A stretch of 64,000 nucleotides of DNA from Cirrosporium novae-zelandiae (taxonomy: Eukaryota), in NCBI GenBank assembly GCA_026023565.1, contig JAPETS010000019.1, forward strand, positions 62,001 to 126,000. Direction: 5' to 3'. This document shows positions 8,172 to 64,000 of the stretch, piece by piece (positions within the stretch are counted from its first letter, which is position 1; each line of letters begins with the position of its first letter). The notes below the pieces were generated by a model that made no database searches, was not told the DNA's origin, and saw only the letters and a program-made list of their open reading frames with translations. Made by a program: the position numbers and the translations under genes.

Positions 8172-8830
8172 CTTGTTGCCCAGTAACGCGTGCAGAGTGT
8201 CAACAAAAAACTGGTTGTTTGGATATAAAAGCAGAAATGTCAAAAAAAGATGATTTCTTTTTCGGGGGAAACGAGGAACGTCGCAGCTAAGTCGTATTAG
8301 TCCAGAAACCATCCGAATTTTTGGGGGAGCATCTCAGAGCAGCCTTGATTGCCTAGTTACTGCGGATTCGTGGGGTCGTGGGGATACACTAGAGTATAAT
8401 GTCCTGCCACTATTTCCGTCTGTTAGAAGCTAATCGATCCCTGCATTTAGTATACCGCTTCCAACAAAAAGTATAATGAATCCCGAGTATCAAATCCCGA
8501 GTTTCGATCGAGATGAATAAAATTAATAGAATACCACTTTTTCCGTTCCATATAATAGCAAGAGTAGTAGTAGTAATTATTACGATGCGTTGTATATTCC
8601 ATCAAAAATGGGTCATCCATCAGCTCCAGTTGGTCTGCTGATTACGAGACTTCAACTACCACTATACCCGACACCTTCGCTAAGCCAGGTATTCTTTGAT
8701 CGAGATCCATGATCGGATATAGTGGAAGTCCCATGGCCATACTCGATGCGCATGCAACTCATAAAAGCAGTTACAATGTTGGACAACCGTATCATCCAAA
8801 TCGCTAGTGTTCGTTGACTATTTTACCACA

Positions 8831-9836
8831 ATGATTAACATCGAAGGACGATTGATTAAGCAGCTGGCCTGCGGGCGTCGAAAGGCCGAAATGACCAGCC
8901 AAGAATATTTTGCTCATCGGTTTCTTGTCCACGGCGAGTTGAGCGATGCTCCAGAGGAGTTGGATCTAAAGCCCCAGTATGTGTAACCAAAAGCTAGAGG
9001 ACATTGTTATTCATTTTCTAACTTTGGAGCCTTCGGGCTCGGTACTTGCGCAGCAAATATATCCAAACCCCTATCTTTGATGCTGCGTTTGGGGCACCAG
9101 CGAAAGGCCCCAATACGAATCATTGGTGGGCCGGTCGAGATGACGTGACGGAGTTGACGTTTAGAGATATGGACCACATGAAGAGCGTCATGACTAGCGA
9201 CCACGCTAGACAGAAGATCGGGCCTGACGGGCGCTTCTTCGCGGACTTCGACGCAGCCATCACCCTTATGGCTGTTACGGAGCCTTTATCCATTTCAACA
9301 AAAATTCAGCCGCCTGGGCCCAATGACAGGCTAGACGATGCCACAGTAGCGTTCTATTTTGTTAACTCAGCAGCAAACGAACTCGATGATGAAGGTCTCC
9401 ACGGCCGCATAGGAACCCTCCTTGTGCAGGCAATTGAGAAGCACGCCGAGGATGACGTCTACAAAGTAGAGGCGAATATTGGCTTTACATTGCCTGAGGT
9501 TTCGTGGAGTGCCCATTTTGGCGGTGCGAGCGACCTGCCTAAATTTGCTCTCGTTTACAAGTTATTTCTAAAAGATTCGACGTCGGCACCTGTGGTGCGA
9601 AAGATGCAGAAGGAATTCGAAAAGGCGGCAGGAAGTTCCATTAACTCAGGCAATTCCTTCATACTCTTTGGAGAAGAGACTCTGATCCAGGATTACAGTC
9701 GCAAGCCATATGTTCATGTAAGCTGATCACCGTCCAAAATCGTGAGGCGGGAAGATGATGCTTGGAGTACTAGCTAACCATAATTTTCTAGTTCGACCCG
9801 TCTCGACAGCGTCCTTTCACCAAGAGAGGGCCTTGA
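8831..9836 (+). CDS. EthD-domain (dimeric alpha/beta barrel) protein; 3 exons
   Basis: Exons 8831-8976, 9054-9717, 9792-9836 splice in frame. RRKAEMTSQEYFAHRFLVHG, KYIQ, DDVTELTFRDMD and PDGRFFAD fit the EthD pattern. Confidence 0.72.
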
Positions 9837-16072: not shown

Positions 16073-17912
16073 TTATTGAAATATATCACAGCTATCTGTT
16101 CTATTCATTATTAGGGGAAAGAATTCCAATTCACACTGCCCTCCGGGTTCTCGTTGACGTTGAATAACCTCTCCATCCATTATACCATAAACGTAACTAT
16201 TAGAAACTTAGTAGTCATCTTTAGTGCCAGTTATCCTAACAACTACTCACCTTTCCCCAACAAAAGTATAGATAGTCTTGTTGTACTGCCGTAACACAAA
16301 AGGGACCATTCCTCCTAGTAGCACAGTGACGATATCACCAATACGTGTTTTAGGATGACACAGGCCCATATAGCCCTTCTGGATCAGAAAAAATACCCGA
16401 CATGAGCATTTACTAGCTGGATCTGTCCTTATTAATCTTTTCAATTCCAGCTCTTCGTCTGAGGTACCTTGGTGGTATGTGATAGTTTTCCAAGGCCTCA
16501 CGATCGAGCCTCCCAAGCTTTGGGTTTTTGCTGAACAGCGTATGCGCAGGATGTTGATCAGCAAAGACTGTTCTCCAAAATGCTTCTAGGTTCGATTGCG
16601 ATGTTCCAAGGTAGCACATCTAATTTGCAAGAATCAATTATAATGGATTGAGCTAGATCTGTATAGACTTTGCTGGTGGGAAGACTATAATCCACCTTTT
16701 TCTTGTTTTCGGGATCAGCAAGGGCAGGCACAGCATATATCTTATCACGGGGATCGCTAGATAAATGTCTTCTGCAGAGACCCAGGAGCTCTAAAAAATT
16801 CGGATATTTTGACACCCTACGTTGCAGTCGTAAGACCGATATTACACGAGCTTTTGTGTTCAAGTCTGGAATAGGGATGATCACGGTCTTTCTGAAACTG
16901 AGATCGGAGGTCCGTTGTATCAGTTTATTCATGTTTCCGCTGAGTAACCACATAAAGTTGTTGAGCGCCGCCCAGTTGAGCGAGTCACGTCCACAGTAGA
17001 CAACCATTTTCCGAGCATGAACGGCCTCTTGGATTATCCAAATTCGGTACCACCATGAGCGTTGTAAAAGCTTACTAATAATGTCCCAGTCTCGCAAGTT
17101 AAGGGAGAAGGAAAAGGTTTGATCAAACTCAGTAAAATAGGGTATTTCTTCATCCAAACTGGTGATAAAAGAATGTGATAGTAACTCCTTATTGCACCGA
17201 CGTACGAGGTCAAATGCCGAGGAACTGGTATTACTTTCAGGTCCAAGCCAGACCACGACCTGCTCCGCTTCTTCACAGACCTTGCCCATTTTTTGAACTT
17301 GTTCATTACCCTCATTGATATTCTTCTGGTCGATACAAATCGCATTGATCCATAAAACTCGAAGATTGTTCCGATAGCGTAAATTACGAAGAGCTGATTC
17401 GAGACTCTCTGTCGCACGGAAATAAGGCGTGTCTTTGATATGTCTCCCCACGTATATGACAAAGCACTATAGACAGGGGACTGGTTTAGGGATGCGACGC
17501 ATAGTTTGCATTTAATATCAGCTGATTTTTCGAGAGACGGAAGCAGGACGACTAAACGAATAGAATCATCGTCGGGTAATGGTATGTAACGATAGCAGTC
17601 ATCTGGCAACTCTGGCCCGTATTCGGCTATGGGATCTTCGGATAATTTCAGGCCTTGAATTGCTTCCACAACCTTGGTTCGTCTATTTTCAGGAAATCGT
17701 TCGATATACCATTTCATAAATGTAGGCCATGCAAATTCTTCTGGGGTGTCGGTTTTTGACTGCTCATATGTCTTCAAATAGACTACCGGTGCTATCCACA
17801 AAACCGCCTTCCTGAAAACAACATCGTCCGCTATCTCACTACACATCTGCATAGCTATGTCCCTGAAATGACTCTTTTTCTCTGAATCACTACCTATAGC
17901 TTCGAGCTCCAT
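16073..17912 (-). pseudogene. HET-domain (HET-6-like) heterokaryon incompatibility pseudogene
   Basis: HET motifs spread over different frames: IRLVVL/YSALSYTWG; LWINAICIDQ/QVQKM/VVVWLG/WWYRIWIIQE/DPRDKIYA; EAFWRT; GYMGL..GDIVTVLLGGMVPFVLR..FVGE; YVYGIMDGE. Frame breaks near 17420, 16610 and 16500. Confidence 0.85.
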
Positions 17913-25663: not shown

Positions 25664-28600
25664 CTAATAAACTTCCAAAACATATCTGCCCTCATCCTTC
25701 AACTTCTCAATCTCCTTCTTACTATCCACCCTCTTGCCGACTCTAGCACCCTCGGCTCGAATGGCCTCCTCCAAAACCTCTGTGACATCTGGCACCGGCC
25801 ATGTGGGCCCGCACAGATAAAAGGCACCTTGCTCCTCCATGTACGCTTTTCGGATGTCTTCAAGCGTCTGTCGCATGCGGTCCTGGATATAGATTTTCTG
25901 GGGTTGATCACGGGAGAAAGCACGACCTAGGAGTGTGATGACACCCGCATCTTGGTATGCCTCCCATTCCTCACCATAGCAGTACTCTTCGCGTTGATGA
26001 CGGGAACCCATGTACAGAAGTACGGCACCGATTTCTTTGCCTTGGGACTTTTCTAGTGCGCGGTGTTGGACGAAGGCACGGAAGGGGGCGAGACCTGTGC
26101 CTAGTCCAGCCATGATAAGGGGTTGAGTGCTCTTTGGGGGCAGCTTCATGACTGATGGTTTGACAGAGACAACGACGGGACTGCCTGGGGCTAAGTCTTT
26201 GAGGTAGCGAGTTGCTTGGCCGAAGCGATCTCGCCCTTTGGGGTCGACCCAGCTTACAGCAACGATCATGAGGGCAACAGCTGTGGGGGAGACTTTCTGG
26301 CAGGATGCAATCGAGTATTCGCGGCGTTTCATGGGGGAGACGATGCGTGCGAGGTCTGGGAAGGATGGGTGGGCAGAGGGGAATTCTAGAAGGATGTCGG
26401 CGAAGGTGATGGTGTCGACTTCGGCACGACGTTTGAACTCGACGGCACCTTCAGGACCAGCTAGGGCCAGAAGGGCGGTTTTTTCGGAGTCAGAGGTCGT
26501 GAAGGATGCCAGAGATTCATAGAAGCGTTTAGGTGGTTTACCGAAGATATCAATATTCTGTACTAGAGCTTGGTAGATGGTGCGGGTTTCGAGAACCTTG
26601 GGATCTTCGCGTGAGGGAACTTGCACGATGGCGGAGGGATCAAGGCCGTAGAATTTTATGAATTCAGTGACTTCGGAGGAATCATTTTCAGCGTGGATGC
26701 CTAGTGCTTCACCGATATCGTATTTGAGACCTGTGGTGCCTAGGTCAAATTCGATATGGAAGATATTACGGTCGTAGGTTGGGGGGGTGAGACGCCTATT
26801 TTCCTTGACATGGACGGTGAAGGTCTTGACGGAAAGATCGGGTCGGAGTGCGGGCGTCGTGCCATACGCTTCCTTGAACATGAGAGCCTTGGCCACGGCC
26901 TTCCAGTCCTTCAGAGCAGAAGGTTCTTCGTCTTCAACTTTGCCAAAGGCCGAGAAACTGTTGAAATTGATGTCCCCAGGGAGGACAGGATCATGAGTTT
27001 CCTTTTCCGGTTCCAAGGTTGCCCAAACTTCAGGGATTTCAATTTGACGTAAAGTCTTATCGAGGCCTTGACGGACAGTTTCAAAGCGGGCTTGGCTGCC
27101 AACAATGGAAGCAAGCTTTTGGAAGCCAGTGGATTCTTGGCTAGGGATAGCAACACGGAGGAAAGCAGCGTGAACGAGATATTGTTCGAGACTAGGATCG
27201 TTGGTAATTTCCTCGTCAGCTTGTGGATTGACGACAAAGAGGTCGATCTTCTTGCCAGCAAGCGCTTTACGGAAACCAAGAGGGAGAGTCTTTTCAATGT
27301 CCTCATCTTTGATACTTGGAAGTCGAAGAATCAATTTTCCGTTATCCCTAACGCTCTGGACGAGGTCAAGGTCTTTGAGAAGCTTGCTATCGCCAATGTA
27401 TGCGACATCAGCACGATCAATTGAGTAAGAAGCTTCAACGGTCCTCTTGGATCTCCTGATATCGATGCGAATTGCACCTCCTTGAAGCATGTTGTCATAA
27501 CCAGTCTTGACGGTAACGTTATTCGCAGAATCTATCGCAAAAGCTTGACCAAGACTAATAGCCGCGATCGCGGAAGGAGAATCATCAATATCCCAGAAGG
27601 TATATTGCTGAACAGACGCTGGGTCAAGGAGTTGAAGCCCATTGGGTGATGTGCCATTTTCTTCCTGTCGTAGAACCGGTTTGCCGAACAGCAACTGGAA
27701 GGCTGCAGCGATCGACACTGGGGTCCATCTCTCTTCCCTGGGATACTTGATATCCCGGATGGATGTTGTGTCAATGTCTCTGGTAGAGAAGTTGATTGCA
27801 GCAAGGACATCATCATACAATCTCGAACGAATGCTGCTATCTGAAACAGCTGCTTTGTCATGAACCTGGCCAAGAATGCCGACTTTCTTAACCGATGCGG
27901 GGAGAACTCGGATAAATTCCTCTTCAACAAATGGTCGATAAACACGGACGGTAACCACACCAATCTTAGTGCCATCTTTGCTCAAACACTCTGCCACTTG
28001 AGATGCCAAGGATGATTCCACTGATCCGAACACAACCAGGATTGCTTCCGCCTCCGCATGACCCTTGTATTCAAATAGGCCATAGTCGGTACCGAGTTCG
28101 CCGTTAAAGGCTTTGAGAAGTTGAAGAGCCCGACCCTCGGCATCTGTATGCTTGCTACTTGGACCGGCGATTTCCTGGGAGATGGACTTGTATACGTCAA
28201 AGAGACCATGTTGATCAAGCACGTCGACTACTCGGACAGTTTCGCGAGCGATTGTAAGACCATCGTAGATGTGAACAGTCGGTAGAATAGCTGCAAGAAG
28301 AGTAGAGAATAGTGCCATGTGCTGGGACTCGTAGGCAGAAAGACTCGAGACCAAGCCGAGACCAAGCTCGTCGGCGACGGTGATGGCAGTTGAGTAATCT
28401 GTTACTAGCCCGCTGGAAGAGCCTCCAGCATAGTCAACAGCAGCGACATGAGCAACAAAGGGATTTGCGACCGAGTATAGCAGGGAGAGCTGATCCAATG
28501 CTGGGCGAAGAAATTGCAAAGTTGATGTGGAGGTGAGAACAGTCTGAGGGATATGTCTCTTCTTTAAATCGAAATCCTTTGAAAATATATAACCTAAAGC

Positions 28601-28954
28601 TATTGACCCAGCACCCATGCGAGTCTCCATGGGCTGGACGCCAGTGACATATCCATAAGCATTTTGCGCATTCTGAGAGGCCCAATCTTTCACGGCAAAG
28701 TCGAGATCAAATGTCTCTGGAGAATATGAGAAAACCTTGTCCGAGAGTGTATAGAGGACTTGTTGGATCAGAGTCTGCGCGGTTATGTATGTCGGGCCTC
28801 CAATGGAGGAGAGGGAAAGCCGTTGGCCGAAAGGAAGAGTTGAAGAATGCTGCTGAAATACTTTCAAGGCGGTCTCTGTGTTGCTTGCGCTCTTGGAGTC
28901 TTTGTGAGCATCAGAGGCACCCGGGCCATTGGATTCGACAGATACACTGCGCAT
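25664..28954 (-). CDS. MET10: Sulfite reductase [NADPH] flavoprotein (alpha) subunit
   Basis: 1096 aa; PFOR-like N-terminal region; FAD/NADPH domain with REYSIAS, MAGLGTGLAPFRAF, AFSRDQPQKIYIQ, FYLCGP, GRYVLEVY terminus. Confidence 0.95.
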   Translation of the reverse strand: MRSVSVESNGPGASDAHKDSKSASNTETALKVFQQHSSTLPFGQRLSLSSIGGPTYITAQTLIQQVLYTLSDKVFSYSPETFDLDFAVKDWASQNAQNAYGYVTGVQPMETRMGAGSIALGYIFSKDFDLKKRHIPQTVLTSTSTLQFLRPALDQLSLLYSVANPFVAHVAAVDYAGGSSSGLVTDYSTAITVADELGLGLVSSLSAYESQHMALFSTLLAAILPTVHIYDGLTIARETVRVVDVLDQHGLFDVYKSISQEIAGPSSKHTDAEGRALQLLKAFNGELGTDYGLFEYKGHAEAEAILVVFGSVESSLASQVAECLSKDGTKIGVVTVRVYRPFVEEEFIRVLPASVKKVGILGQVHDKAAVSDSSIRSRLYDDVLAAINFSTRDIDTTSIRDIKYPREERWTPVSIAAAFQLLFGKPVLRQEENGTSPNGLQLLDPASVQQYTFWDIDDSPSAIAAISLGQAFAIDSANNVTVKTGYDNMLQGGAIRIDIRRSKRTVEASYSIDRADVAYIGDSKLLKDLDLVQSVRDNGKLILRLPSIKDEDIEKTLPLGFRKALAGKKIDLFVVNPQADEEITNDPSLEQYLVHAAFLRVAIPSQESTGFQKLASIVGSQARFETVRQGLDKTLRQIEIPEVWATLEPEKETHDPVLPGDINFNSFSAFGKVEDEEPSALKDWKAVAKALMFKEAYGTTPALRPDLSVKTFTVHVKENRRLTPPTYDRNIFHIEFDLGTTGLKYDIGEALGIHAENDSSEVTEFIKFYGLDPSAIVQVPSREDPKVLETRTIYQALVQNIDIFGKPPKRFYESLASFTTSDSEKTALLALAGPEGAVEFKRRAEVDTITFADILLEFPSAHPSFPDLARIVSPMKRREYSIASCQKVSPTAVALMIVAVSWVDPKGRDRFGQATRYLKDLAPGSPVVVSVKPSVMKLPPKSTQPLIMAGLGTGLAPFRAFVQHRALEKSQGKEIGAVLLYMGSRHQREEYCYGEEWEAYQDAGVITLLGRAFSRDQPQKIYIQDRMRQTLEDIRKAYMEEQGAFYLCGPTWPVPDVTEVLEEAIRAEGARVGKRVDSKKEIEKLKDEGRYVLEVY

Positions 28955-31226
28955 CGTGAACTAGGAGGATTTGGACGATGCAGAGGAGATGATGGAGGGG
29001 AGTATGAGGAGAAGAGGAACAGAGGATGAGATTTATTTAGCGGCGAACCCATTGCGATTTCGGCGATTGAGACAAAAAAAAGTTGTCATGTAGCATTGAC
29101 TAATTGTCGATTGCGTGCTTGAGATTAACAACAAAGCTTGGAATGAAGTTTTCTTTCGGTCCCCACGTCCCTTATCCGCTGGGTTTGGTGGGGTCGCTTC
29201 CGATAAGCCCACCCCTCAAATCGTTTTAGCGTCGGAAGAGGGATCCTTTCTTCCATTTCGCTTATAAATTCTGAATAGCTCGAACGACAGAGACCCGGAA
29301 AGATAAGATAAGATCTTAATCATTCCATACCATCCGGATTCCGAATCTAATTACTCAACCCCGGTCCGATATCTAATCAGATAATCAGATCAAAATTATC
29401 CAAGACCACAGGACTCCCGTGCACGTACGAAGAATACACTCTAGAAGGAATATAATCCAGCAAGCGTTGTGCACTAGTGTTTGCAAGGCATCCATATATA
29501 TCATCGTATGCCCTACCCTTATCTAAGAAAACAAAACCATAAAAACTATATTTTGAATGACGTTATTCACTTTATTATCAAATACATCTCAATCTAGGAA
29601 TATATTATTTGCTATTATCAGTGCCAGCTAAATTTCATTAAATACCTAGGTATATAATTTATAAAAAATCTAACTATAAATGGTAAACCGAATATCTACA
29701 CTGTGGTAAGATGAACGGACCCTGCAAGATACAAGACGCATCCTTAAATTTAAGCTTATCCCCAAATTCGCTAATTCGTTCTACAAAAAACTCTCAAAAA
29801 TTAGATCGGATGCGAAACCTTTCCTAATTATTAATAAAGACAAGGCGTTTTATACAACAAAGCATGAAAAGTATCTTTCTCCTGTTGAAATCACTAAAGG
29901 GGGAAAAAAGGGAAGGAGGGAGAGACCTTACAAATAACAACAACTCCATGGTAAAAAAAGAAGAAAAAAAAGAAATCTCTCAAGGGAAAGAAAATGAAAA
30001 GAAGTTAACTGGATTAACTAGATTACTGTCACTGAGTAAGTAACCTAATAGCCTCCCTATTATATTTTTATTATATTGAACAAGTATGTGGTACTTAAGT
30101 ACATATACAAGTTCGCAAGCTCAACAAAGTACCTAGGCATAAATAGAGTAATTATACATCAGTGTAGTAAAGTTAGCGATTCATCGCACCCATAATCCAT
30201 TCATTTTATTCATCGCACGAGCGAGTACTGACTAAGACCGACTGCCTTGAACCACTTGGAGTTTCTGTGATAACATCTCGTGGGTGTGCTATATCTAGGA
30301 CAGGCCAAGTCAGGTCAGGCTAGATCCATGGCTTTCCATTTCGTTTCATTTCGTTTACATATATATATATAATTATCCCAAAGCCCAACTCGGCTTGTGT
30401 GTGTTACTTGGGTTACCAAAACAGAATGGCCATTAGAATACACTACTAATTACCACCCAGCCAACTCCCATGGGCTAGTATCAGCCAGAAAAGTAAACTT
30501 GTTTGGATATGCTTTTACAGTGTTTACTTAGTAGGAGCTTGTTTTTTTCTTGGCTTGCGGCTTGGTTGGTTGCATGTCTTGATATAGATTAATCGATCGT
30601 TTAAGAGTCGTAGGATACCTACCCATGAAATAAAAATATAAAAGGTATGAGTTCGGGTTTATGCTGTGCTATCGAACCAGGTTAGCCAGGCTTAAAAGAC
30701 CTACCCTATACTCAAAGATATCTTCGATTGCTTTACATTCATACTATACCCGCCAACGCTTCATCGTTATTGGCATCTTCATAGTTAATTTTAAATGGGG
30801 GTGGGGTACTACAAACTACCACTACTAACGAGTATCCCGATTCCTATCTGCAACAAAACAATACTACGTATATTGGCATCTCCCTCTCTCCACTCCCTAC
30901 CATAATACCATAATGTATTGATGCTGATCTGTGTGTTCCCTAACCCCCTTTCCTAGTCCCGGATATCTGGAGATATCAGCACCACCCTTCTCCCGCTGAA
31001 CGAAAAAACTTTGTTTGTACGTTTGGTACCCGGAATCATCCGTGTGTGTGTATGCGTGTGCGTGTGTGCGTGCAATTCAATCTTGCAAAAAGTCGCGAAA
31101 GGGGGTATCAAGAAATCCCGCATGAATGACAAGACAGACAGACAGATAGACATATACCCTACATCTCCTTTCCATAATTTTGCAGATCATGTCTAAGCAA
31201 CTCTCTGCAGACCGCGGAAACATCTT

Positions 31227-33029
31227 TCATAAAGTTTTCACCTTCATCCATTCGGAGGTTCCAACTCCGAGGTTTAAGCCATTCTTTGCCCACCAGCGTC
31301 GGATTTCTTCTTCTTGTGGTCCGGCTACGCTATCCTCGAGCGCTTCTTCAATGTCACAGGTTTTGTATTCAACTCTGTAACCGCTGCGTTTCCACCATTC
31401 TAGAACGTTGCTGTGGCCGTTCTTTGTGGGGCAAACTAGAACTTGGTTGTCGTAAATCATTTTCTCCCCCTTGAGCGCTTTCCAGGCAGAGAGGACGTTC
31501 ACGTGACCATGCGCTGATGCCATCTTGGCTACGCTCTCCTCGTGTAGATATGCGATTCCAGATAGATCCCACCATCGGACGACGTCGGCCTGACCACCCT
31601 GTGCGGCGTAGCAGATGGACCTGCCAACCTTTTGGGCCAGGGGGTTTTCGGTTGAGGTGAATGCTTTTTTCCACCACTCCAGGACGGTGATGTGGCCCTT
31701 TGACGATGCTCCTTCGAGAGCTGCGGCGGTGTATTTGAGCGTCAGGCCTGACTGCCGCCACCAGTCTAGGACGTTGACAAATCCGGCCTTGGACGCGCCG
31801 TCGATGGCTTCGGATGTGTACTCTTTATTTAGGAAGAAGGGGGAGGTTCGCCAGAACTCGAGGATTTCGACACGGGGGAATATGGCGGATGCTTTGATGG
31901 GGAGAAGGGTATGGGAGAAGGTACTGCGGAATAGGTCCTGTTTATTGGTAGAGAGATAGTTGAGCAGGGGTACAAGTCCAAACTTTAGAATGATTGTTGT
32001 GGGTTGTTGGGTGAGATATGGTGGTGGCGGATCCATGCTATTGAGATGAGCGATGGCTTCTTCTAGAGTACCTGTCAACAGGGTCCAGGAGAAATAGAAC
32101 ATGTTATGATGGAGGGTTGGTAATGGAACATCAGGGTATTGCCACTCGGGTGGGGTTGGGAGGGTTGTATAGACGCCAAGAGCCTTAGAAATTTCCCAGT
32201 CTCCAACATAGTCAAAGATGATGCTCCAAATTTCAGGTGGAAGACGTTGGCAGGTACGACGAGACGAGTTGTGTGGTAGTACGCCTCCCGTGTTCATAGT
32301 AACCTCAACGCCTTGGCCAATCGACATTAAATCAGCTTGAACATTGACTGCTTCCATCACCTCATCCATGCCTTCCCACTTCACACATTTTTTTTCCCCT
32401 TGGTATTGCCACAGCAGGGGTTGTATCACACGAACCCAGGTCCATTGTCTTCTGATTTTGTTCAACTGTTTTTTTGTCATAGGGTTTTCCCAAGCAGCTA
32501 CTGTCATGCCGGGGACCATCAATATCTTTTTGAATACATCCCACCCTCGAAGCACCTCTAGTAGTAAGTTGTTGGTGAAACCATGTAGCATTTTGGCCAA
32601 ATTATTCGTATCGATAGGAGCTAGGATAAGCAGGTCGGCCCAGGCACTGAGCTCGGCGGCCTTTCGTTCGCGTTCTTCTTCTGGTACTGGTTGATAGACT
32701 GCACAACTTCCAGATGGTCCCAAAGGATTGTCGTTGAATGGATCTCCTAGCCTCAAAGTATCTTGAATCCATTGCCAGTTTCCGTGGCTGTTACTGAGGA
32801 TAGCTTGAACCGATAAATTTGACCTTGTGCATAGCTTGCCGAGAATATTTCGGGTGATGGCGAAATCAATGGCGTTTGTGGATGCGAGCAAGACCTTGAG
32901 CTTAGAAGTCTTTTCGGTGGTAGACATATCTGACAGGGAGGCTGAGGAAGAATTCCGTTGTCCCTCTGTCATATTTGAGGCCGTCATGAAATCTCCCATT
33001 TCTATGGGAGCTAAGGGATTCGGGAGCAT
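31227..33029 (-). CDS. HFCD (PPC-decarboxylase-like) flavoprotein domain + F-box-like motif + ankyrin-like repeat protein
   Basis: WADLLILAPIDTNNLAKMLHGFTNNLL...GWD...MVPGM...WENP (HFCD fold); RLPPEIWSIIFDY (F-box-like, about 32196-32246); repeated ASxxGHVNVLEWW units. First ATG is at 33029 (the ORF track starts at a GTG). Confidence 0.85.
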   Translation of the reverse strand: MLPNPLAPIEMGDFMTASNMTEGQRNSSSASLSDMSTTEKTSKLKVLLASTNAIDFAITRNILGKLCTRSNLSVQAILSNSHGNWQWIQDTLRLGDPFNDNPLGPSGSCAVYQPVPEEERERKAAELSAWADLLILAPIDTNNLAKMLHGFTNNLLLEVLRGWDVFKKILMVPGMTVAAWENPMTKKQLNKIRRQWTWVRVIQPLLWQYQGEKKCVKWEGMDEVMEAVNVQADLMSIGQGVEVTMNTGGVLPHNSSRRTCQRLPPEIWSIIFDYVGDWEISKALGVYTTLPTPPEWQYPDVPLPTLHHNMFYFSWTLLTGTLEEAIAHLNSMDPPPPYLTQQPTTIILKFGLVPLLNYLSTNKQDLFRSTFSHTLLPIKASAIFPRVEILEFWRTSPFFLNKEYTSEAIDGASKAGFVNVLDWWRQSGLTLKYTAAALEGASSKGHITVLEWWKKAFTSTENPLAQKVGRSICYAAQGGQADVVRWWDLSGIAYLHEESVAKMASAHGHVNVLSAWKALKGEKMIYDNQVLVCPTKNGHSNVLEWWKRSGYRVEYKTCDIEEALEDSVAGPQEEEIRRWWAKNGLNLGVGTSEWMKVKTL

Positions 33030-33156
33030 TGTACTATATCGAGCAGGACGAATGATGTGGAAGGTTGTCGGGAGCACACGTCTCACAGACCGCTATTTTA
33101 GACGGATGGCGCGCCTGTTTCGGTTTTGGGCATGATGAGTGGAGGTGTTGTAAAAT

Positions 33157-33208
33157 GAATGGGCTGAATGGGCTGAATGGGATGAATGGGAGAGTTGGGA
33201 GAGTTGGG
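33157..33208. repeat. 9-bp tandem repeat (GAATGGGCT/GAGTTGGGA variants) upstream of the flavoprotein gene
   Basis: About six degenerate 9-mers read directly. Confidence 0.75.
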
Positions 33209-33848
33209 GATAGACGATTACTTGACCTGAAATTCGTAAAGCGTAAAGTGGACTCGCTCATTTGATGTTCGGAAGGGAAAGAAAACGATTCGGGAGGACT
33301 TCTAACGGTTTACGGCAATTAATACCAAAAACAACCCAGACTAATCAGCCGATGACCCAAGACAGGTCACGGAATAAATCATTCCACTATTAAGCCAACT
33401 AATTACTGGATTCTATCAGTTCTACTCAGTATCAGCCCATTCCTCATTGCCAAATCATTTGATGAGGTAAACAACTGCGAGGCGACGGAGACTAATGACA
33501 GTATCTACGAACTAGTTGCTTTTATTCATATGCGTTGTATACAACAAATAATATTCGGTTTTTCCATCAAACCCCTCTGTGGCAAATACCTGGTTATTTA
33601 TTTGTCGGGTTGGTGTTGTGTGTCTGCTATTTTGGCCTTGATATTTTGTCGACAAACTTCGGATCTGGTGGAATGCAGCTTTACCGTCATAACGATACGC
33701 TTGATGTCATCAACAGTACTATAATTACATACCTGATAGGTAGGGCATGTTTTTTTCTTTTTGCACTCGGAACATTATTTAATCCTCAAAAATAGGGTTA
33801 TTTTGTTAGGGCTGTGGCTGCACGATGGGTTCATTCTGAAGCCATGAC

Positions 33849-33879
33849 GTCTTGTCTTGTCTTGTCTTGTCTTGTCTTG
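33849..33879. repeat. (GTCTT)6 microsatellite in the divergent intergenic region
   Basis: Read directly. Confidence 0.9.
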
Positions 33880-34623
33880 CGTCCTTGGCCATCTCCCTTG
33901 GTAAGTCTCTACATAACCGGGTCGCAGTAGATCAAACCCGATATCGTCATTACCATCAATATTTCGGTTTTTTTCAATATTAGATACTTCATCGGTCATC
34001 ATTATGCACTATTGGAATGCATCAACCTAATAAAAGTCTCCTCTGTATAAAGTTGCAAAGTTATTTAATGCAGCCACAGATGCACGTGAGAGACGTAGCC
34101 TAAATGATCCCCCAATCCTCCTCTCGCTTTCCACTGTCCACTTTCGAGGCCCCATTTCCGCTCCTTCCCTTTCCTTGTCGGCTTCTCTAGACCTTCAACT
34201 GGCTGGTGCCACACTGTATCTATCCTTTTTCTTCATTTTTGCCACTTCCTCAGGGTTCACTGTTCCACTGTTCATTGCTGTCAATTTTGTACTCTGAACT
34301 TGCTACTCTCAGAACAACGATCCTCAAACCTATCAATTTAAATACCTAATATCTCTGCTTTTAATGTCTCTTAACTGTTTCCATCGTTTCCTTCTCTTCG
34401 AACTCTACTTATAAATCTTTCATTATTGCCAAGGACATGCTCTCTGCTCAGCAAAAGAGTTCCAATCATCTTCTGTGGATAATCTCGACTCGGGTACGCA
34501 TCCTACGACATAACGTCCCAACTTCGACCGAATGATCTCCCTGCAAACCTTCTTAGCCTGTCCTTTTGATCTGAGTCTCGTACTTGGCTAAGCTATTTGC
34601 TCTTGGTAAGCGTCGAAGCAACA

Positions 34624-37600
34624 ATGTCTGAGCATTTTCCAGACCCCCCTGCCGGAGATAATACGGAACCGACGTTCTCGCACCCAATTACCACTAATCA
34701 AAACGTGGATGCACAACCATCGCCACATGAGCCGTCGGTGTCATCGATTCCATCATCTCCCCGACTCCCCGCTAGCGGTACTAGGCCTAGTGCCTTTGAC
34801 AGAGGATCAATTATATCTACCTCATCTATGCCCATGGAGTCTCCATTATCGAGTCCTGGTCTACAGAACCGAGTGTTTCCCATCAGATCTGTTGTCTCGG
34901 TCGACCCTACGCCAGGCTCATTGGATACAAGTGGCTATGGATTTCCGAATATGGGTCCTTCGCGTGTTAGCCAACCCCCTACCGAATATTATACGCGAAG
35001 TCGGCAGTACTCTCAAGCCTCCTTTACGAGTAGTTATCGACAATCACCTGTGCCACAGACACCGTTAGAACGAACCGACGTAACCAGTAGCAGACAATAC
35101 CCTCTGGATACCCTAGATAGCACTGCAGGACCGTCGCGGAGTAGTTCACGGGCCTTCTACAGAGGCAATTCTAGGAAGAGAGAAAGGAGGAGCTCCTCGC
35201 ATCTTGTTGATGCCAATTTGCTCTTTTCTGGTGAAGATGATTTGTCACTAAAATCTGATAGTACGGCGAGCTCGGTACAAGGCACTGCAAGTAAAGGTGG
35301 TAGTCAGTTTGCTGGAGATTTGGAAAACCCTCGTTTGGTAACAACGAGGTTTAAGCATGTGATAACCGATGGTGGCCATGCAGTCGTCACTGGGCGGGAT
35401 GGTGATATATTACAGAGATGTGAAGATGAGCCAATCTGCATACCTGGAGCAATACAAAGCTTTGGTTTTCTAATAGCGTTTGATGAGGATGTGGATCGGA
35501 AGCTTGTTATCAGAATCGTCAGCGAAAACTCGAAACAGCTTATTGGTTACTCTCCCGCACAATTATTTGCATTGGACTCCTTCTGCGATATATTGTCAGA
35601 GGAGCAAGTCGATAATCTCTTGGATCATATTGACTTCGTTCGAGAAGATGATACCATTGACACTGCCGAGAGCGGACCAGAAATATTTACCCTGTCGATC
35701 CGAACGCCACATAAACGAAGTCAAAAATTATGGTGTGCCCTACATGCTAATGATAAGAACCCTGACCTCATAATTTGCGAATTTGAGCTAGAAGACGATA
35801 AAGATAATCCTCTAGTGCCTATGGGCGTGACAACCCCGGAGCTTGTAGAGAATACCTTGGGAAGCGACCCCACCGCAGAAGAATTAGCGGAGAGTACTAT
35901 CAACATAAGCAGGCCATTAAGGGTACTTAGGAGTGCAAGAAAAAAGAAGGGGGATGCCGCTGCCATGGAAGTCTTTAATGTCATATCGCAAGTCCAGGAG
36001 CAGTTGGCGAATGCAGCGAACCTGGAAATCTTTCTTAAAGTCCTAGTGGGTGTGATCAAAGAACTCACCGGTTTCCACCGAGTAATGATATATCGATTTG
36101 ATCAAGCATGGAATGGCAAAGTCGTCACCGAACTTGTTGACCGAAGGGCTACGATGGATCTCTACAAAGGGTTGCATTTTCCCGCTTCCGACATTCCAAA
36201 ACAGGCGCGGGAGCTTTACAAGATAAATAAAGTTCGTCTCCTTTACGATCGTGACCAGGAAACGTCACGATTAGTCTGCAGAACCATAGATGACCTGGAT
36301 CCTCCACTTGACATGACCCATTGCTTCCTTCGAGCTATGTCGCCCATCCATATCAAGTACCTTTCTAATATGGCCGTCCGGTCGTCAATGTCGATATCAA
36401 TTAATGCTTTCAACGAGTTATGGGGTCTCATATCCTGCCACTCCTATGGACCTAGGGGAATGAGAGTTTCCTTTCCCATTCGTAAGATGTGTCGCTTGGT
36501 TGGGGATTCAGCATCCAGGAATATCGAACGTCTATCATATGCCTCGCGATTGCAGGCACGCAAGCTCATCAACACTGTACCGACGGAGCGAAATCCTTCT
36601 GGCTATATCATTGCATCATCGGAAGACCTTCTCAAATTGTTCGATGCCGACTGTGGAATGCTTTCAATTCGTGATGAAACCAAAATTCTAGGAAAGATTG
36701 GTAATTCTCAAGAAGCACTAGCTATGCTTGAGTATCTCCGAGTGCGAAAGTTTTTATCGGTTATGAGTTCACAAGATGTTAGGGTTGACTTCCCGGATCT
36801 CCGGTATCTACCGGGTTTCCGGGTTATTGCAGGTCTTTTGTTAGTCCCTCTGTCGGCTGGAGGCCAAGATTTCATCGTTTTCTTCCGACAAAGCCAACCC
36901 CGAGAGGTAAAATGGGCCGGGAATCCATATGAAAAGGTCATAAAGGAAGGTACAGAAGCGTACCTGGAGCCGCGAAAAAGCTTTCGAATCTGGAGTGAAA
37001 AGCTTCAAGGGAAATGCAAGGGGTGGACAGAAGAACAAGTGGAGACAGCTGCAGTGCTATGCCTTGTCTATGGCAAATTCATTGAAGTGTGGAGGCAAAA
37101 GGAGGCAGCACTTCAAAGCAGTCAATTGACAAAGCTCTTGCTAGCCAATTCCGCACATGAGGTCAGAACCCCACTGAATGCAATCATTAACTACCTGGAG
37201 ATAGCGATGGAGGGTTCCCTCGATCACGAGACTCGTGAAAACCTTGCGAAATCCCATTCAGCTTCAAAATCGCTGATTTATGTTATCAACGACTTGCTCG
37301 ATCTGACAAAGGCGGAGGAGGGCCATAGTCTACTCAAAGTAGAGAAGTTTGATCTTTTTGAAACCATCCGAGAGGCCACAGACCCATTTAAAGGAGATGC
37401 CAGGAGAAAGAATATTGACTTTGAAGTGATTCAACACCCTGGACTTCCTCAATATGTGCTCGGAGATCAGAGACGAATACGTCAAACCCTTTCGAATGTA
37501 ACTGCTAATGCTATTCAACATACTACCGTTGGCGGAGTGAAGGTGGAGGCGTGGTTGGCCCAGAAAGAAGGCGGACGAGCAGAAGTTGAATTCGCAATCG

Positions 37601-39117
37601 AAGACTCTGGCTCAGGAATGACCCAACATAAACTCGATACTTTATTCCAAGACCTTGAACAGGTGACGTCTGAAGAGGATGATTTACTAGACGATCAACT
37701 TATGGCAGATGATCATCGGATTGGAAATACAGATAAGGATGGTAAACGAGCTTTAGGACTGGGCCTTGCAATAGTGGCAAGGTTTATTCGGAACACTGAT
37801 GGGCAACTACGACTGAAATCTGAAGTAGGCAAAGGCTCTAGGTTTGTTGTCAATCTACCCTTTGGTTTACCGGAAGAGCTGGAACTACATTCAGAGAAAC
37901 CTTCAACCTGGTCGTCACAATTCGGTCCGGGAGAGTTTCCTGTTACGCCACCAGCTGCCCCTGAAGGGGAGGTTATGCTTGTTAGCAAAGACTCTGGTAG
38001 GAAGAACCATGGAAGTCCTATCATACACATGGCACGAAAGCATAGTGTCAATAGTTTAGCAAGTCATAGTAGTGGGAAGAGCCACAGAAGCCACTCCACC
38101 GGAAGAAGCATCAGAAGCGATGTGGATCGGCTTATCGATGCCATCAAAGAACCGTACATGGTGCAAGAATTGGGACCCCCCTTAACCAACCGGGATAGGG
38201 GATTCAAAGTTTCAGCGACATACGCTGGATCCCCTCAAAGGAGACCTGAACCGAGGAGAGCCAGCAGCATGGATCACATTGTTCCAGAACACTTGCGGTC
38301 AATAAGTGCTTCTCGAGGCAAGAGACACATTATAGATTTAAGAGTACCCTTGAGTGCTATTAAGATACCTGATGAACCAGACTTGAAGTCCATGGAGATG
38401 AAGTCCAGCTCGGCGTCAAAAAATACTTCTGCCAAAGGTTCGGATAAAGGCCATATGAACGTTCTGGTTGCAGAGGATGATCCTATCAATAGTAGAATCG
38501 TCAAAAAACGGCTAGAAAAATCTGGTCATATAGTGCATCTAACAGTTAATGGGGAAGAATGTGCCAGAGCCTATTATAATCGCCCAGCACCGTTCGACGT
38601 TGTCCTCATGGACATGCAGGTAAAAGGGTCTATATAATCCTAAATTTGCTATTCTAACATTGTGCAGATGCCAATAGTTGACGGTCTAACTTCAACCAAA
38701 ATGATTCGATTATTTGAAAAGTCACAAAATTCTCAACTTTTGTCTCGCCGAGCTGCTTACCACAACCGTGTCCCTATTTTTGCAGTATCTGCCTCCCTGG
38801 TTGAGAATGATCGCAATGTCTATGTTGAGGCAGGGTTCGACGGTTGGATTCTGAAGCCTATAGATTTCAAACGTGCAGACTTTCTTCTTGCTGGAATTTT
38901 CGACGAAGTGAAAAGAGACCAGGCTTGCTACCAACCAGGCAGTTGGGAGTGTGGTGGCTGGTTTGAAAGTAGGCGATCCGATATCTTTACAGCACATACT
39001 AGACATTCAGGACGGCGAATGCTTTTTACTAAGCCGCTAGCACAACCCTTTGTGGACGGTGCAGCAGATGATAATAAATCGACCAACTCGTATACACACA
39101 GAAGCCAGTCGCTCTGA
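34624..39117 (+). CDS. fphA: Fungal phytochrome (NTE-PAS-GAF-PHY-HisKA-HATPase-REC); 2 exons
   Basis: Bilin-binding Cys in RCEDEPI; LHFPASDIP; SPIH; WAG and PRKSF tongue motifs; SAHEVRTPLN H-box; LGLGLAIV; REC VLVAEDD...LMDMQ|MP; intron 38620-38667. Confidence 0.96.
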
Positions 39118-59939: not shown

Positions 59940-62900
59940 ATGAGTCCCATCTTAAAAGACGAAAACGCTTTTGACAAGGCGCTGCGGGAAGTCAAGAGAC
60001 AGTATAGGGAGGAGCTGACAACAAAAGAACTCGCAAAAATTAATACTCCAACGAATGTCGACGACTTGCTTTCCACGGCAAGACACATCAGCAAGACATA
60101 CGAGTCACAAAAGCAGGGAAATTTTACCCAGCTTCTCGGAGCCCTTGATAAATATGGCTCCAATATTCGAACGTATGATCGTCTTCTTGAGGGAGTTTGC
60201 AAGCTTAGCCCAGCTGGGGGAGAACTACTATGGGGTAGCATTATGTTTGTGTTCGAGGTTAGACCAACTCTGCAGCTTTGGAATGGACTCAATAACGACT
60301 AAATAAATGTACAGATGGCGAGATATAACGTTGATGCCTCCGACCAGGTATTGAGCTTCTTCACTACGTTAGCTCAACGAATGGACTACCTAAATAGCCT
60401 GGAAAACACATTCGCCAAGGAGGCGATAATTGCGCCGTCTTTGGAATCCACGTACATATCGATGATCAAATTTTGGGCAGAAGCAGTGAAGCATAGCCGA
60501 ACTAGGGGCTTCAGTAATTCTACACACCCTCTACAGATTATAATACCTAACTGACAAGATTTACATAAAGGCAGAGTTATTCGGTTTTTATTCCCCGGGT
60601 CCGTTGTTCGGAAGTTCAAAAGCCTTGATGCCGAGATACAAAAGCAGATGAAAACACTCGAGAATGTTGCTGCTGCTCAACATTATCAAGATGAGAAGAG
60701 CTTTCATGGCGAGGCCTTGTCACACCTTAAAACTGAACAAGAAAGGAAGCACCTGGCCTGGATAGCAGCACCAGCTTATGAACAAGACTATAAGAAGGCA
60801 ACTAAGAAACGCCACGAAGGAACTTGCGAATGGATACTATCGAAAGATGTCTATAACGAATGGCAGCAAGACGTGAAAGGTAGAATACTTGTTATATATG
60901 GTATTGCAGGCGCTGGAAAGACCATATTGAGCTCTCTTCTCATCAAACAGTCAAGCCCAAAATTCAAGCCAAGCGGGAGAGATACTATCTGTATCTATCA
61001 TTATTTCAAAGCAGATGATGAGACAAAAAATACACCGCTTGCAGCAACTCGATCGTTTCTAGAACAGCTATACCTTGAACTTAAACCAAACAACGAAAAT
61101 GACAAATCGGCTCTGTCAATGGAAGTCGAAGCGCGCTCTTACAAACGCTCCTTAACCTTTGAGGACCTCTGGGCGGTCTTCAGGATTTTTGCTATATCAT
61201 CTCACGTTCATATCATCATTATCCTAGATGCAATGGATGAATGTAAAGGTCCGAAACCATTTATCCGAGAACTTCACAACCTTTGTAAAGCTGAAGCCGT
61301 GAAAGTTGTGATTACGGCTCGGAAGGATGGTGAGCACGTTGAAGAATTTCGCCGAGCTTCAGGCGTTCAAACTATTGACATACAGCAAGAGGATCTAAAA
61401 AGAGATATTGCTTCATTCGTGAAATATAAAATCAACAAGATCGAACGACTGAAGGAACCCAAAGATAGGCCCCTGAGGGAAAACGTCATTGCAGATCTTG
61501 GAAAGGTTGAAAACCATGGTGGTATGTTCCTGTGGGCCTACCTAATGTGTAAGGACGTGAAAGATCAGATAAGCATCCCAGCCATATGGAAATTGCTCCA
61601 GGAACTTCCAAAGGGTCTTGACGCCGTTTACATAAAAATCTTGAAAAAGCTAAACCAACTGCCAAAGGAACAGCAAGATTTCAGCTGTCTAGTTTTGAAG
61701 TGGATCGTGGGTAGCAGTAGACCTCTTCGTTTCCCCGAGTTAGAGCAGGCTTTGAGACAGGCACCTCCGATAGATGATCTTTTCGATGACGACGAAGGCG
61801 AATGTGGACTCAGATGGTCTCGAAAGGATATCGTACGTGTATGTGGCTCGCTTGTTTCTTATAGCGGACTAGAAGATGGTGATGTAGTCTCCCTGATCCA
61901 TTTGTCAACCAGAGACTTTTTGAAGAGCGACCCTAGGCAACTTGAGCTGGATTCTCCAATTGCCAAATATTTTGTTGATATCTTTTCTGCCGAGATTATA
62001 CTATGCAATTCCTGCTTGGACTTTCTTCTGAGTGAGCATCTCCATAGAAGTGCGCACTTTCGAGGAAGACAGTTGATAAATCGCGTTTGGAACCCCCCCT
62101 CCGATGACTTTCTAGCCTCATATCCTTTTTTTGATTATGCTGTGCTTTATTGGTCCGACTATGCTCTCGATGTATTTGAGACGTTTGATCACTCAAAATC
62201 CCAAGTACACCAGCCGGAAGTACCCCAGTTGGAAAGGAAAATTTCGAAATTCAGCCAACAAGAGTTCTCTACTATCTGGCTTGAAGAGTATATTCGACAA
62301 GTCACAGTGGAATTTGCATACTATACATTTTCACGATTTCAAGGTATAAGGTTGCTTAGCCCCGACCTTGTAAATTGGACACTCTCAATCAAAGACACTT
62401 TGAATAACTTTGGACTCACTATCTCGAAAAAACCGCAAACAATACATAGGTATTCGAATACAAACTCATCATATATTCGACGAAACAAAATAATACAAGA
62501 GACACATTACTTTAACTCTGGTGATGATAATATTAAGTCCGATGACCAAAGAACAACAATGGAAAAGGCTGATCGAGCATGGCTTGAGTACGAACCTCGC
62601 TCAGGCAGTCTCTACTCTGCAAGATATATTGCTGATACCATATCATTAAGTCGGGTTACCTTAGACACCAAGGCAAGATATCGAGCAGCCATCGACGCAG
62701 GAGAAGTGAGCCCCGCTGGAAAATGGGTTGTTCGATCCGCAGTCATCCGAGATAGAGGTAGCTTTATTGCGATTACCTTTTGTCCTTTGGGGAGAGGAAA
62801 CGTGCCCGATCTACTGTTTTTGCGTACAGTTTGTTGGAGTGTCATATCTGGTCATGATAGCAAGAGCAATAGTAGATGGGCCGAAATCGCTTTTATTGAC

Positions 62901-64000
62901 CGCCTGGAAGACCCCGGCTGTTCTATATTCAGACATATTGTTCCATCGTTTTCCATCGTCGATGGACGAGCTGACGTTGTAGCGTTCGGTGACAGCCATA
63001 CGCTTATTGCTCCTGGAGGGATTTGGAATATACTTACAGAAGAAAAGGTTGCTCGCCCTACTGCGATATATGAACCTGACCCGAGCCTGAAGGTGTCATA
63101 TACATGTTTCAGTGGAAATGGTAATCGGGTTGCCAGGGTCAGTCATCAAAGTGAGCTTCAGGTACTCGACATCAAAGGAAATATCCTCTTGCGCCATGAA
63201 TTTCCAGTCCTAAAATCAGAAGACCAAAGCGTTCATATTCTTGCCTTTAGCCCTTCCGGCAAAAAGCTTATTCTTTGGTTCAGAGAAGACTTACGACAAA
63301 ATGATGGGGCTTTTGAAGCATTCAAGTCCCGGCGGCTTTGTTTCTACGCTGATGAAGGAAGATGTGTAGAGCTCCATACCCCCCCGAAACTTACGGCTTT
63401 ACAATTCCCTAAGTTCAATAAAGGGGAGAACTTTATCATTGGCAGGATCCCTGAAATCAGATATAGCGAAACAGACACAAATACCTTGGAAGGTAGTTCT
63501 ATCGCTTTGTGGACCTTGCCCCTTGACCCCGCTTCCGATTCCGAGGCCCAGATGGTCTTTCTCTTCAAAAGCATTACTACCAGATTGACGTTTTCATTTA
63601 TGTGGAATAAAGCCGCCCGTGAACAAATGGTTATACTCGCAGATTCTGATGGCTCCATACATCAGCGACCCTTGAAGCAGCAGTGGTCAGCAGACGAGGA
63701 GGAAGCCTTGCTTAGTTCGCGCCACTTCCTCACTGCAGGTGGTAAATCTATTCAGTGTATTTCAAGTGACGGATCAAAGTTACATATGGCTTTGTGCTCT
63801 AACATTAAGTGAGTTGTATAACGATTCTACGAATCTTACCCTCTAACACGCATAGCTTGACTTCACCAAATCTTACCTACGAGTCCTGGACGCTCGGGAC
63901 TCGACCACCGCATCTTATTATGCGACTTTCTGATACGCCCAAAGCCTCCGATTGTAGCGACATATCACTGAGCCACGATGCTCGATATATAGGTGCCAAA
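59940..64000 (+). CDS. NACHT-domain NLR-like (STAND) protein with helical N-terminal domain and probable degenerate beta-propeller C-terminus; 3' end lies beyond the window
   Basis: Exons about 59940-60257, 60315-60513, 60571-63808, 63856->64000; RHEGTCEWI, Walker A GIAGAGKT, Walker B IILDAMDEC, GMFLWA, LPKGLDAVY, IHLSTRDFL, FFDYAVLYW; WD-like segments (FSGNGNRVA, AFSPSGKKL). Confidence 0.9.

Follow-up and report, generated by a model that had tools for sequence, protein, structure and literature searches.

A pseudo-PPCDC/F-box-like/ankyrin fusion gene paired head-to-head with a fungal phytochrome gene: a candidate SCF-type adaptor

Why a phytochrome gene should share its upstream region with a gene for a flavoprotein-fold protein that also carries an F-box-like motif and ankyrin-type repeats, and whether this partner has anything to do with light, are questions raised by a 64,000-nucleotide stretch of the Cirrosporium novae-zelandiae genome (assembly GCA_026023565.1, contig JAPETS010000019.1, positions 62,001 to 126,000 of the forward strand), here called the window. 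An initial annotation had proposed that the partner, hereafter the fusion gene, is a convergent fungal analogue of the plant ZTL/FKF1 proteins, i.e., a flavin- or redox-gated SCF adaptor co-regulated with the phytochrome. The reading that we favor, with a probability of roughly 45%, retains the adaptor and the co-regulation through a shared promoter and recasts the flavoprotein (HFCD) domain as a dead enzyme that serves as an oligomer or ligand switch. In this reading, the fusion gene is a single-copy, leotiomyceta-wide gene that has stood head-to-head with the phytochrome gene since before at least four classes split. The elements of the locus, in window coordinates, are as follows.

31227-33029, minus strand: fusion gene (pseudo-PPCDC/F-box-like/ankyrin), an intronless open reading frame (ORF) of 600 amino acids with its ATG at 33029, encoding protein P0001.
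32319-32903, minus strand: HFCD (Hal3/PPCDC-fold) domain, residues 43-237, assigned from the PF02441 match, the fold match and residue counts.
32142-32246, minus strand: truncated F-box-like motif, residues 262-296, assigned from hhalign, the AlphaFold2 (AF2) model and column conservation.
31260-32117, minus strand: ankyrin-type alpha solenoid, residues ~305-590, assigned from the AF2 model, the fold match, Ank_4 matches and the alignment.
33030-34623, no strand: divergent intergenic region and putative bidirectional promoter, 1,594 bp between the ATGs.
33812-33821, minus strand: GCAGCCACAG copy 1, a weak, post hoc candidate cis-element.
34070-34079, plus strand: GCAGCCACAG copy 2, a candidate cis-element inverted relative to copy 1.
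34624-39117, plus strand: FphA/PHY1-type phytochrome gene, with exon 1 at 34624-38619, an intron at 38620-38667 and exon 2 at 38668-39117.

The arrangement first described, a divergent pair about 1.6 kb apart with no gene between, is borne out by the ATG positions (33029 and 34624) and by the sole stop-to-stop frame of at least 100 amino acids lying wholly between them (33356-33724), which joined no cluster among the ORFs of 57 related loci. The domain order also held, with PF02441 at residues 45-207 (E 3e-10), the sequence LPPEIW at residues 263-268 and an ankyrin-type fold at residues ~305-590. A Pfam scan of the phytochrome found an N-terminal extension followed by PAS2-GAF-PHY-HisKA-HATPase-receiver, and the key residues Cys266, DIP523, His845 and Asp1330 are all in place; it is an FphA/PHY1-type protein, for which bilin binding and photoconversion are predicted. 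The fusion gene is single-copy: a protein search of the genome returned itself and the stand-alone PPCDC only (4 candidates). A second phytochrome of this genome lies on a different contig (L084; G000:C38:364267-367743), where a copy of the fusion gene was not found.

The microsynteny survey that the initial annotation recommended revealed divergent linkage across four classes of Pezizomycotina. A metagenome scan identified 195 relatives, the best 80 of which yielded 79 loci. Twenty-four of these loci contained a phytochrome gene, which was always upstream and on the opposite strand (24/24 divergent), while 14 had at least 4.5 kb of upstream sequence without a phytochrome and 41 were too short. 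Pairing was therefore kept, in constant orientation, in 24 of the 38 loci with sufficient upstream sequence, and it is beyond chance. The ATG-to-ATG distance in 14 other linked loci was approximately 857-2,293 bp. Locus tags or accessions of the two genes were consecutive in six of seven named genomes (Candelaria pacifica, Pycnora, Phyllosticta citrichinensis, Baudoinia, Elasticomyces and Hortaea); the seven were chosen for having both proteins listed, in most cases on contigs of matching length, which biases this ratio upward, and tags report adjacency, not orientation. A quick tree placed linked loci with Acarospora, with Lasallia (a long-branch join), with Hortaea and Cercospora, and in a Dothideomycete clade sister to Botryosphaeriales, and placed unlinked loci with Leotiomycetes, with Aureobasidium, in one divergent clade and as single losses (L014/15, L048). 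Linked cases thus come from Xylobotryomycetes (this genome), Candelariomycetes, Dothideomycetes and, by tree placement, Lecanoromycetes. The arrangement is found in many fungi that form lichens or carry dark pigments. The 3' neighbor of the fusion gene varies among the linked lineages (Met10, Tht1-like, Dbf4, PAN2, KH and cytochrome b5/NOL10 genes), so that the pair itself is better conserved than what lies around it. In one linked locus, the two genes are separated by an inserted alpha/beta-hydrolase ORF (L040:2680-3510).

Hints of co-regulation come from the intergenic sequences. The element GCAGCCACAG occurs twice in the window, both times in the intergenic region and in inverted orientation, against 0.07 occurrences expected; 1 of 100 shuffles reached two. 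Among the linked representatives, 10 of 14 have the motif AGCCACA no farther than 1.2 kb upstream; among the unlinked ones, 2 of 11 do. The linked promoters were not clearly enriched for TGACGT or spaced GATC motifs. A (TCTTG)n pentanucleotide run lies in the middle of the intergenic region (33850-33881). The orthologue in Z. tritici (JGI id 42063) had no match in the differential-expression tables of a long-exposure light-versus-dark study, to which its id may map incompletely. This absence says little, because the phytochrome of that species was likewise not differentially expressed. The idea that the fphA mutant of A. alternata also removes the neighboring gene was dropped, since that mutant lacks just 61 bp of 5' untranslated region.

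The N-terminal half of the fusion protein belongs to a well-known fold. PF02441 was found in 41 of 41 fused family members scanned, and the AF2 model of the domain matched the Hal3 structure of Cryptococcus (6eoa) with Z 18.8, a root-mean-square deviation of 2.8 and 178 aligned residues, and that of AtHal3a with Z 18.2; PPCDC/Hal3 structures overall gave Z 17.5-18.8. Catalysis by PPCDC requires His90, Asn142 and Cys175 in AtHal3a numbering (passages in PMC6695811 and PMC9604783). Homologues of the fusion protein numbered 452 among 8,000 scored candidates, and the residue counts given here cover P0001 and 119 others listed (120 of the 452). The equivalent of His90 was His in none of the 119 alignable sequences (Ala in 105; 1 sequence was not matched), and that of Asn142, within PxMNxxMW, was Asn in none of 120 (Ser in 105, Thr in 15). 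The clamp motif CG[DE], which contains Cys175, was found in 0 of 120; it is present in the genome's own stand-alone PPCDC, which is intact (H112, N170, C205). The HFCD domain of the fusion family is, judged by these positions, a pseudoenzyme in which all three catalytic residues have been lost, and because the counts show their absence, the database labels PPCDC and 'related to SIS2' are contradicted. The family resembles PPCDC, AtHal3a and Cryptococcus Hal3 in its fold and in recognizable PxxxNxxxK and PxMxxxMW motifs; unlike PPCDC and AtHal3a, it lacks the His/Asn/Cys residues, is joined to an F-box-like/ankyrin module and exists beside a separate, intact PPCDC. Yeast Hal3/Vhs3, non-catalytic PPCDC subunits and Ppz1 inhibitors, resemble the family in having a Hal3 fold with an incomplete catalytic set that probably serves in regulation; yeast Hal3 keeps the catalytic His (passage in PMC6695811), and the fusion family does not.

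Whether such a domain could still hold flavin mononucleotide (FMN) bears directly on the proposed likeness to ZTL/FKF1. Conservation is concentrated in the C-terminal half of the domain, where 35 columns are at least 95% conserved and P-x-D-A-N-x-L-A-K and P-G-M-S-x-x-M-W are retained; the N-terminal half has no such column. Where other HFCD proteins have the GSVA loop, most members show G-C-x-D, P0001 shows S-T-N-A-I-D, and Asp replaces the equivalent of Thr53 in 95 of 120 homologues; we take these positions to be FMN contacts. Gly150 (AtHal3 Gly116) is present in 120 of 120, followed by a variable position 151. The equivalent of Leu117, which belongs to the oligomer core (passage in PMC6168597), is often polar (His in 42 and Asp in 13 of 120) and is Phe in P0001. 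Loss of the FMN site through the Ser-to-Asp change at position 140 was considered and rejected, since working enzymes tolerate Asp at the places of P0001 Asp140 and Asp142, as seen in human PPCDC and Cryptococcus Hal3; these residues are no argument against FMN. The motif evidence for FMN binding is thus mixed.

It is against this background that the original proposal, taken in a strong form, must be judged, namely that the HFCD domain holds FMN and acts as a blue-light or redox switch gating an SCF ligase that works on the phytochrome or its outputs, as a convergent analogue of ZTL/FKF1. Plant ZTL, FKF1 and LKP2 provide a light input to SCF (review passage), and the fusion protein shares with them the order of a putative flavin domain, an F-box and repeats. 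It differs in having no LOV domain, no Kelch propeller and a truncated F-box: Pfam scans found no PAS/LOV family match, the N-terminal domain being HFCD by sequence and by fold, and the C-terminal region is an all-alpha solenoid in the AF2 model and fold match, not a Kelch beta-propeller. The fusion protein is therefore not a member of this family and shares no homology with it; the relation is one of analogy only. What survives of the analogy is the three-part architecture and the linkage to a photoreceptor that is conserved across classes, while the flavin domain is a pseudo-PPCDC domain, not one of LOV type, and its N-terminal FMN-loop half is poorly conserved. Rice OsHAL3 is a stand-alone PPCDC-type protein that is not known to have an F-box or ankyrin region. 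As a Hal3-fold protein tied to light, with reported inactivation of this FMN protein by blue light (passages in PMC12115001 and PMC8048436), it is a precedent closer than ZTL, and the initial annotation missed it. Light-controlled SCF degradation is known in fungi, in the case of VE-1 via FWD-1 (passage in PMC9238092), and the strongly conserved C-terminal half of the HFCD domain would also suit a flavin switch. The altered GSVA loop, the Asp at the Thr53 equivalent, the often polar Leu117 equivalent and the dispensability of the linkage in several lineages speak against it. A Hal3-fold pseudoenzyme acting as a non-LOV flavin light or redox switch of SCF, co-expressed with the phytochrome from a bidirectional promoter, is accordingly quite improbable. 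If it were true, turnover of the phytochrome or its outputs would be set by a ZTL/FKF1 analogue built from unrelated parts, which would have been overlooked since the pair is unlinked in model species, e.g., A. nidulans.

The adaptor reading depends on the segment that follows the HFCD domain. Its L-P-x-E-x-W pattern is nearly invariant across the 120 homologues and is retained by unfused relatives, and 11 of the 35 columns at residues 262-296 are at least 95% conserved. An F-box profile made from 27 of 30 fetched F-box loci of the same genome aligned with residues 259-286 over 28 ungapped columns (probability 93.9%; E 1.6e-7 when counted as a single comparison). Ten further windows taken from the C-terminal half reached no more than 1.3%. 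In 124 of 134 proteins, the top match of a genome-derived F-box hidden Markov model (HMM) overlapped the motif; the score of P0001 was 12.5 bits, against 2.5 for the highest of 670 shuffles. The conserved positions of the motif coincide with the F-box hallmark positions, and the AF2 helices at 265-275 and 278-284 correspond to F-box helices 1 and 2. These comparisons point to a partial F-box, consisting of helices 1-2 only, which could dock on Skp1.

The remainder of the protein, residues ~305-590, is modeled as an ankyrin-type solenoid (AF2 pLDDT 94.6) that matched espin, ankyrin and DARPin chains with Z 15-16 (16.1, 15.9) over 255-263 aligned residues. Ank_4 was found in 30 of 41 fused members at E<=1; P0001 itself had no Pfam ankyrin match. 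The C-terminal cap (EYKTCDxEEALED, WWxxNGLNLG) is strongly conserved: of its 52 columns, 30 reach at least 95%. Wherever the source of a full fusion is named in the list of 120 homologues, it belongs to Pezizomycotina. A profile search of 1.84 billion representatives found relatives that have the F-box-like motif and ankyrin region without HFCD, the named ones being from Sanghuangporus, Rhodotorula, Cronartium and Ascobolus. These unfused proteins are homologous along the whole C-terminal half (32-39% identity) and differ in having SAP or nothing where the fusion family has HFCD; a weak SAP match was seen in two of those scanned. Structural neighbors in the Atlas included a SAP cluster of 125 members, commonest in Basidiomycota (TM 0.74), and ankyrin clusters from Nucleocytoviricota. 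The (SAP)-F-box-like-ankyrin proteins P0299, P0307, P0312 and P0364 and their relatives have the same C-terminal cap, and their records give no functional name. In the simplest history, an older fungal F-box-like/ankyrin module, often with SAP in Basidiomycota and Pezizomycetes, would have captured a duplicated PPCDC domain, which would afterwards have lost all three catalytic residues. Proteins of the AnkB type in bacteria and large DNA viruses carry an N-terminal F-box followed by ankyrin repeats and serve as SCF substrate receptors; they are not known to have an HFCD domain.

Taken as an adaptor, the fusion protein would bind a target protein through its ankyrin groove and conserved C-terminal cap and dock on Skp1 through its shortened F-box, forming an SCF-type substrate receptor in which the dead HFCD domain would act as a switch by oligomerization or ligand binding rather than as an enzyme. 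Its gene and the PHY1-type phytochrome gene probably share promoter elements, and from these and the long-held head-to-head position it follows that the two are likely to be co-regulated; the protein might then act downstream of the phytochrome.

Several observations weigh against this adaptor reading. On the side of the linkage, clusters at 90% identity were linked in 14 cases, unlinked in 11 and uninformative in 19; at 75% identity, 4 were linked, 7 were unlinked, 1 was mixed and 4 gave no information. Linkage in other taxa, which the initial annotation had named as a test, exists across classes, but 11 of the 25 clusters that are informative at 90% lack it; it is missing from Leotiomycete-like and Dothideales-like loci. 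In Neodothiora, the seventh named genome, the tags are 118 apart and the pair is not adjacent. In A. nidulans, fphA is AN9008, and its annotated neighbors, a P450 (AN9007) and a gene described just by three Aspergillus orthologues (AN9009), suggest that the pair is unlinked there. An unrelated three-gene block is common to L011 and the distant L056, from which it follows that deep synteny also persists among these loci without a known functional tie. On the side of the promoter, AGCCACA was the third-ranked motif in the discovery set of 12 Dothideomycete regions, a borderline result close to the maximum seen with shuffled sequences, and its recurrence in three held-out intergenic regions (4 versus 0.44 expected, P 0.001, as one of 10 motifs) is a weak result because the motif had already been noticed.

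Divergent gene pairs in fungi tend to outlast other orientations. The linkage could accordingly be inherited inertia of such a pair, the protein being unrelated to light; it may instead regulate CoA or pantothenate metabolism, either in a hetero-oligomer with active PPCDC or by sensing pantetheine through the retained clamp hairpin. The retention of the protein in the 11 clusters that have lost the link, the existence of other deep synteny blocks and the absence of the Z. tritici orthologue from the light-versus-dark tables all suit this explanation, as does the presence elsewhere of a Sir2, aminotransferase or ketopantoate hydroxymethyltransferase gene at the head-to-head place. Several short loci likewise have another gene there (Sir2, MFS, Rap1), and the short locus L038 has a phytochrome-like fragment. 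Inertia explains less well why four classes share one 5' neighbor and differ in the 3' neighbor, and the absence from the Z. tritici tables carries little weight, since differential expression was not seen for the phytochrome of that species either. The subunits of the yeast heteromer, moreover, each retain a catalytic residue (passage in PMC6695811), whereas the fusion family retains none. Inertia with a role outside light is fairly doubtful on this balance. Among the replacements, five loci of one divergent clade (L049, L064, L068, L077, L081) have a Sir2-family gene instead of the phytochrome. In L020, the gene facing the fusion gene head-to-head (8177-9256) encodes ketopantoate hydroxymethyltransferase, of the pantothenate pathway; a homologue lies a few kb downstream in L069 (16217-17327), and PAN2 is close by in L009, L020 and L070. 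These neighbors may reflect an ancestral block or a CoA link.

The F-box assignment is the other weak side of the adaptor reading. Helix 3 (V[SC][KR]xW) is absent, its place being taken in the AF2 model by a loop, V-Y-T-x-L-P-x-P-x-E-W, with a 3-residue helical turn, which ends in the invariant Trp296. Pfam F-box families matched 0 of 41 fused members at E<=1; in a wider set, 3 of 36 members matched F-box-like, all below the cut-off (best score 19.8 bits versus 24.3, E 7e-4). A scan of the genome that gave 67 F-box-like matches at E<=0.5 likewise missed the motif. No F-box structure came up in fold searches, although ankyrin chains filled their lists and the 35-residue segment was barely probed. 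The HMM scans that had been suggested for the three regions thus support the HFCD domain and, in most members, the ankyrin region, and not an F-box of the Pfam type; the F-box-like motif stands by its position ahead of the repeats and its profile match.

These gaps would be expected if LPPEIW were a degenerate F-box relic that caps the solenoid of a non-ligase scaffold, e.g., a phosphatase or kinase regulator like Hal3 in its relation to Ppz1. The AF2 model places the segment in one compact unit with the repeats (pLDDT 88-94), and yeast Hal3 is a non-catalytic regulator (passage in PMC9604783). Nevertheless, none of the 120 homologues has the signature for Ppz1 binding (basic-basic-xxx-VTF or VSF), the same review passage states that no Ppz1 role is expected without it (PMC9604783), and the segment fits the F-box hallmark positions gaplessly over 28 columns; such a scaffold is unlikely. 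The specific role of a Ppz1 inhibitor was rejected on the missing signature. An RVxF-like pattern, which 61 of 120 proteins contain without a common position, gave no useful information. The fusion protein departs from yeast Hal3/Vhs3 in this signature and in its C-terminus, an ankyrin solenoid in place of an acidic tail. By these sequence criteria, it is neither an active PPCDC nor a yeast-type Ppz1 inhibitor, and it may still work like an F-box adaptor.

Other features of the window and assembly stand apart from the pair. The 3' neighbor of the fusion gene here is a sulfite reductase alpha-subunit-like gene (25664-28960, minus strand), found at 0 of 57 related loci. MetR is required for fphA expression in A. 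nidulans (passage in PMC8399174), and the presence of this neighbor is probably a coincidence. A HET-domain ORF (16561-17466, minus strand) and a NACHT/NPHP3_N ORF (60555-63809, plus strand) are typical fungal non-self-recognition genes. Identical F-box matches at the same coordinates (149053-149169) on contigs G000:C35 and G000:C47 suggest that a contig is duplicated in the assembly.

No earlier description of the linkage or the fusion surfaced in the literature covered, which takes in few subscription papers, and a 2022 review of fungal Hal3 proteins mentions neither ankyrin nor Pezizomycotina. LicA/LIC1 was considered as a known phytochrome-linked gene and was not confirmed as such among the papers listed. 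The gene pair is real and conserved and has apparently not been described before, each of its parts being of a known kind.

Few partners of fungal phytochromes are known, and the fungal section of a 2023 review names VeA and LreB (passage in PMC10813442); the fusion gene is a specific candidate for a missing component. The analysis also corrects the annotation of proteins that many genomes call PPCDC or 'related to SIS2' and that have none of the three catalytic residues. Where the two genes are linked, editing the promoter of the phytochrome gene could disturb the fusion gene too. Should the HFCD domain have kept its flavin and a response to light, it would represent a second kind of fungal flavin light switch and would link light to ubiquitin ligases.

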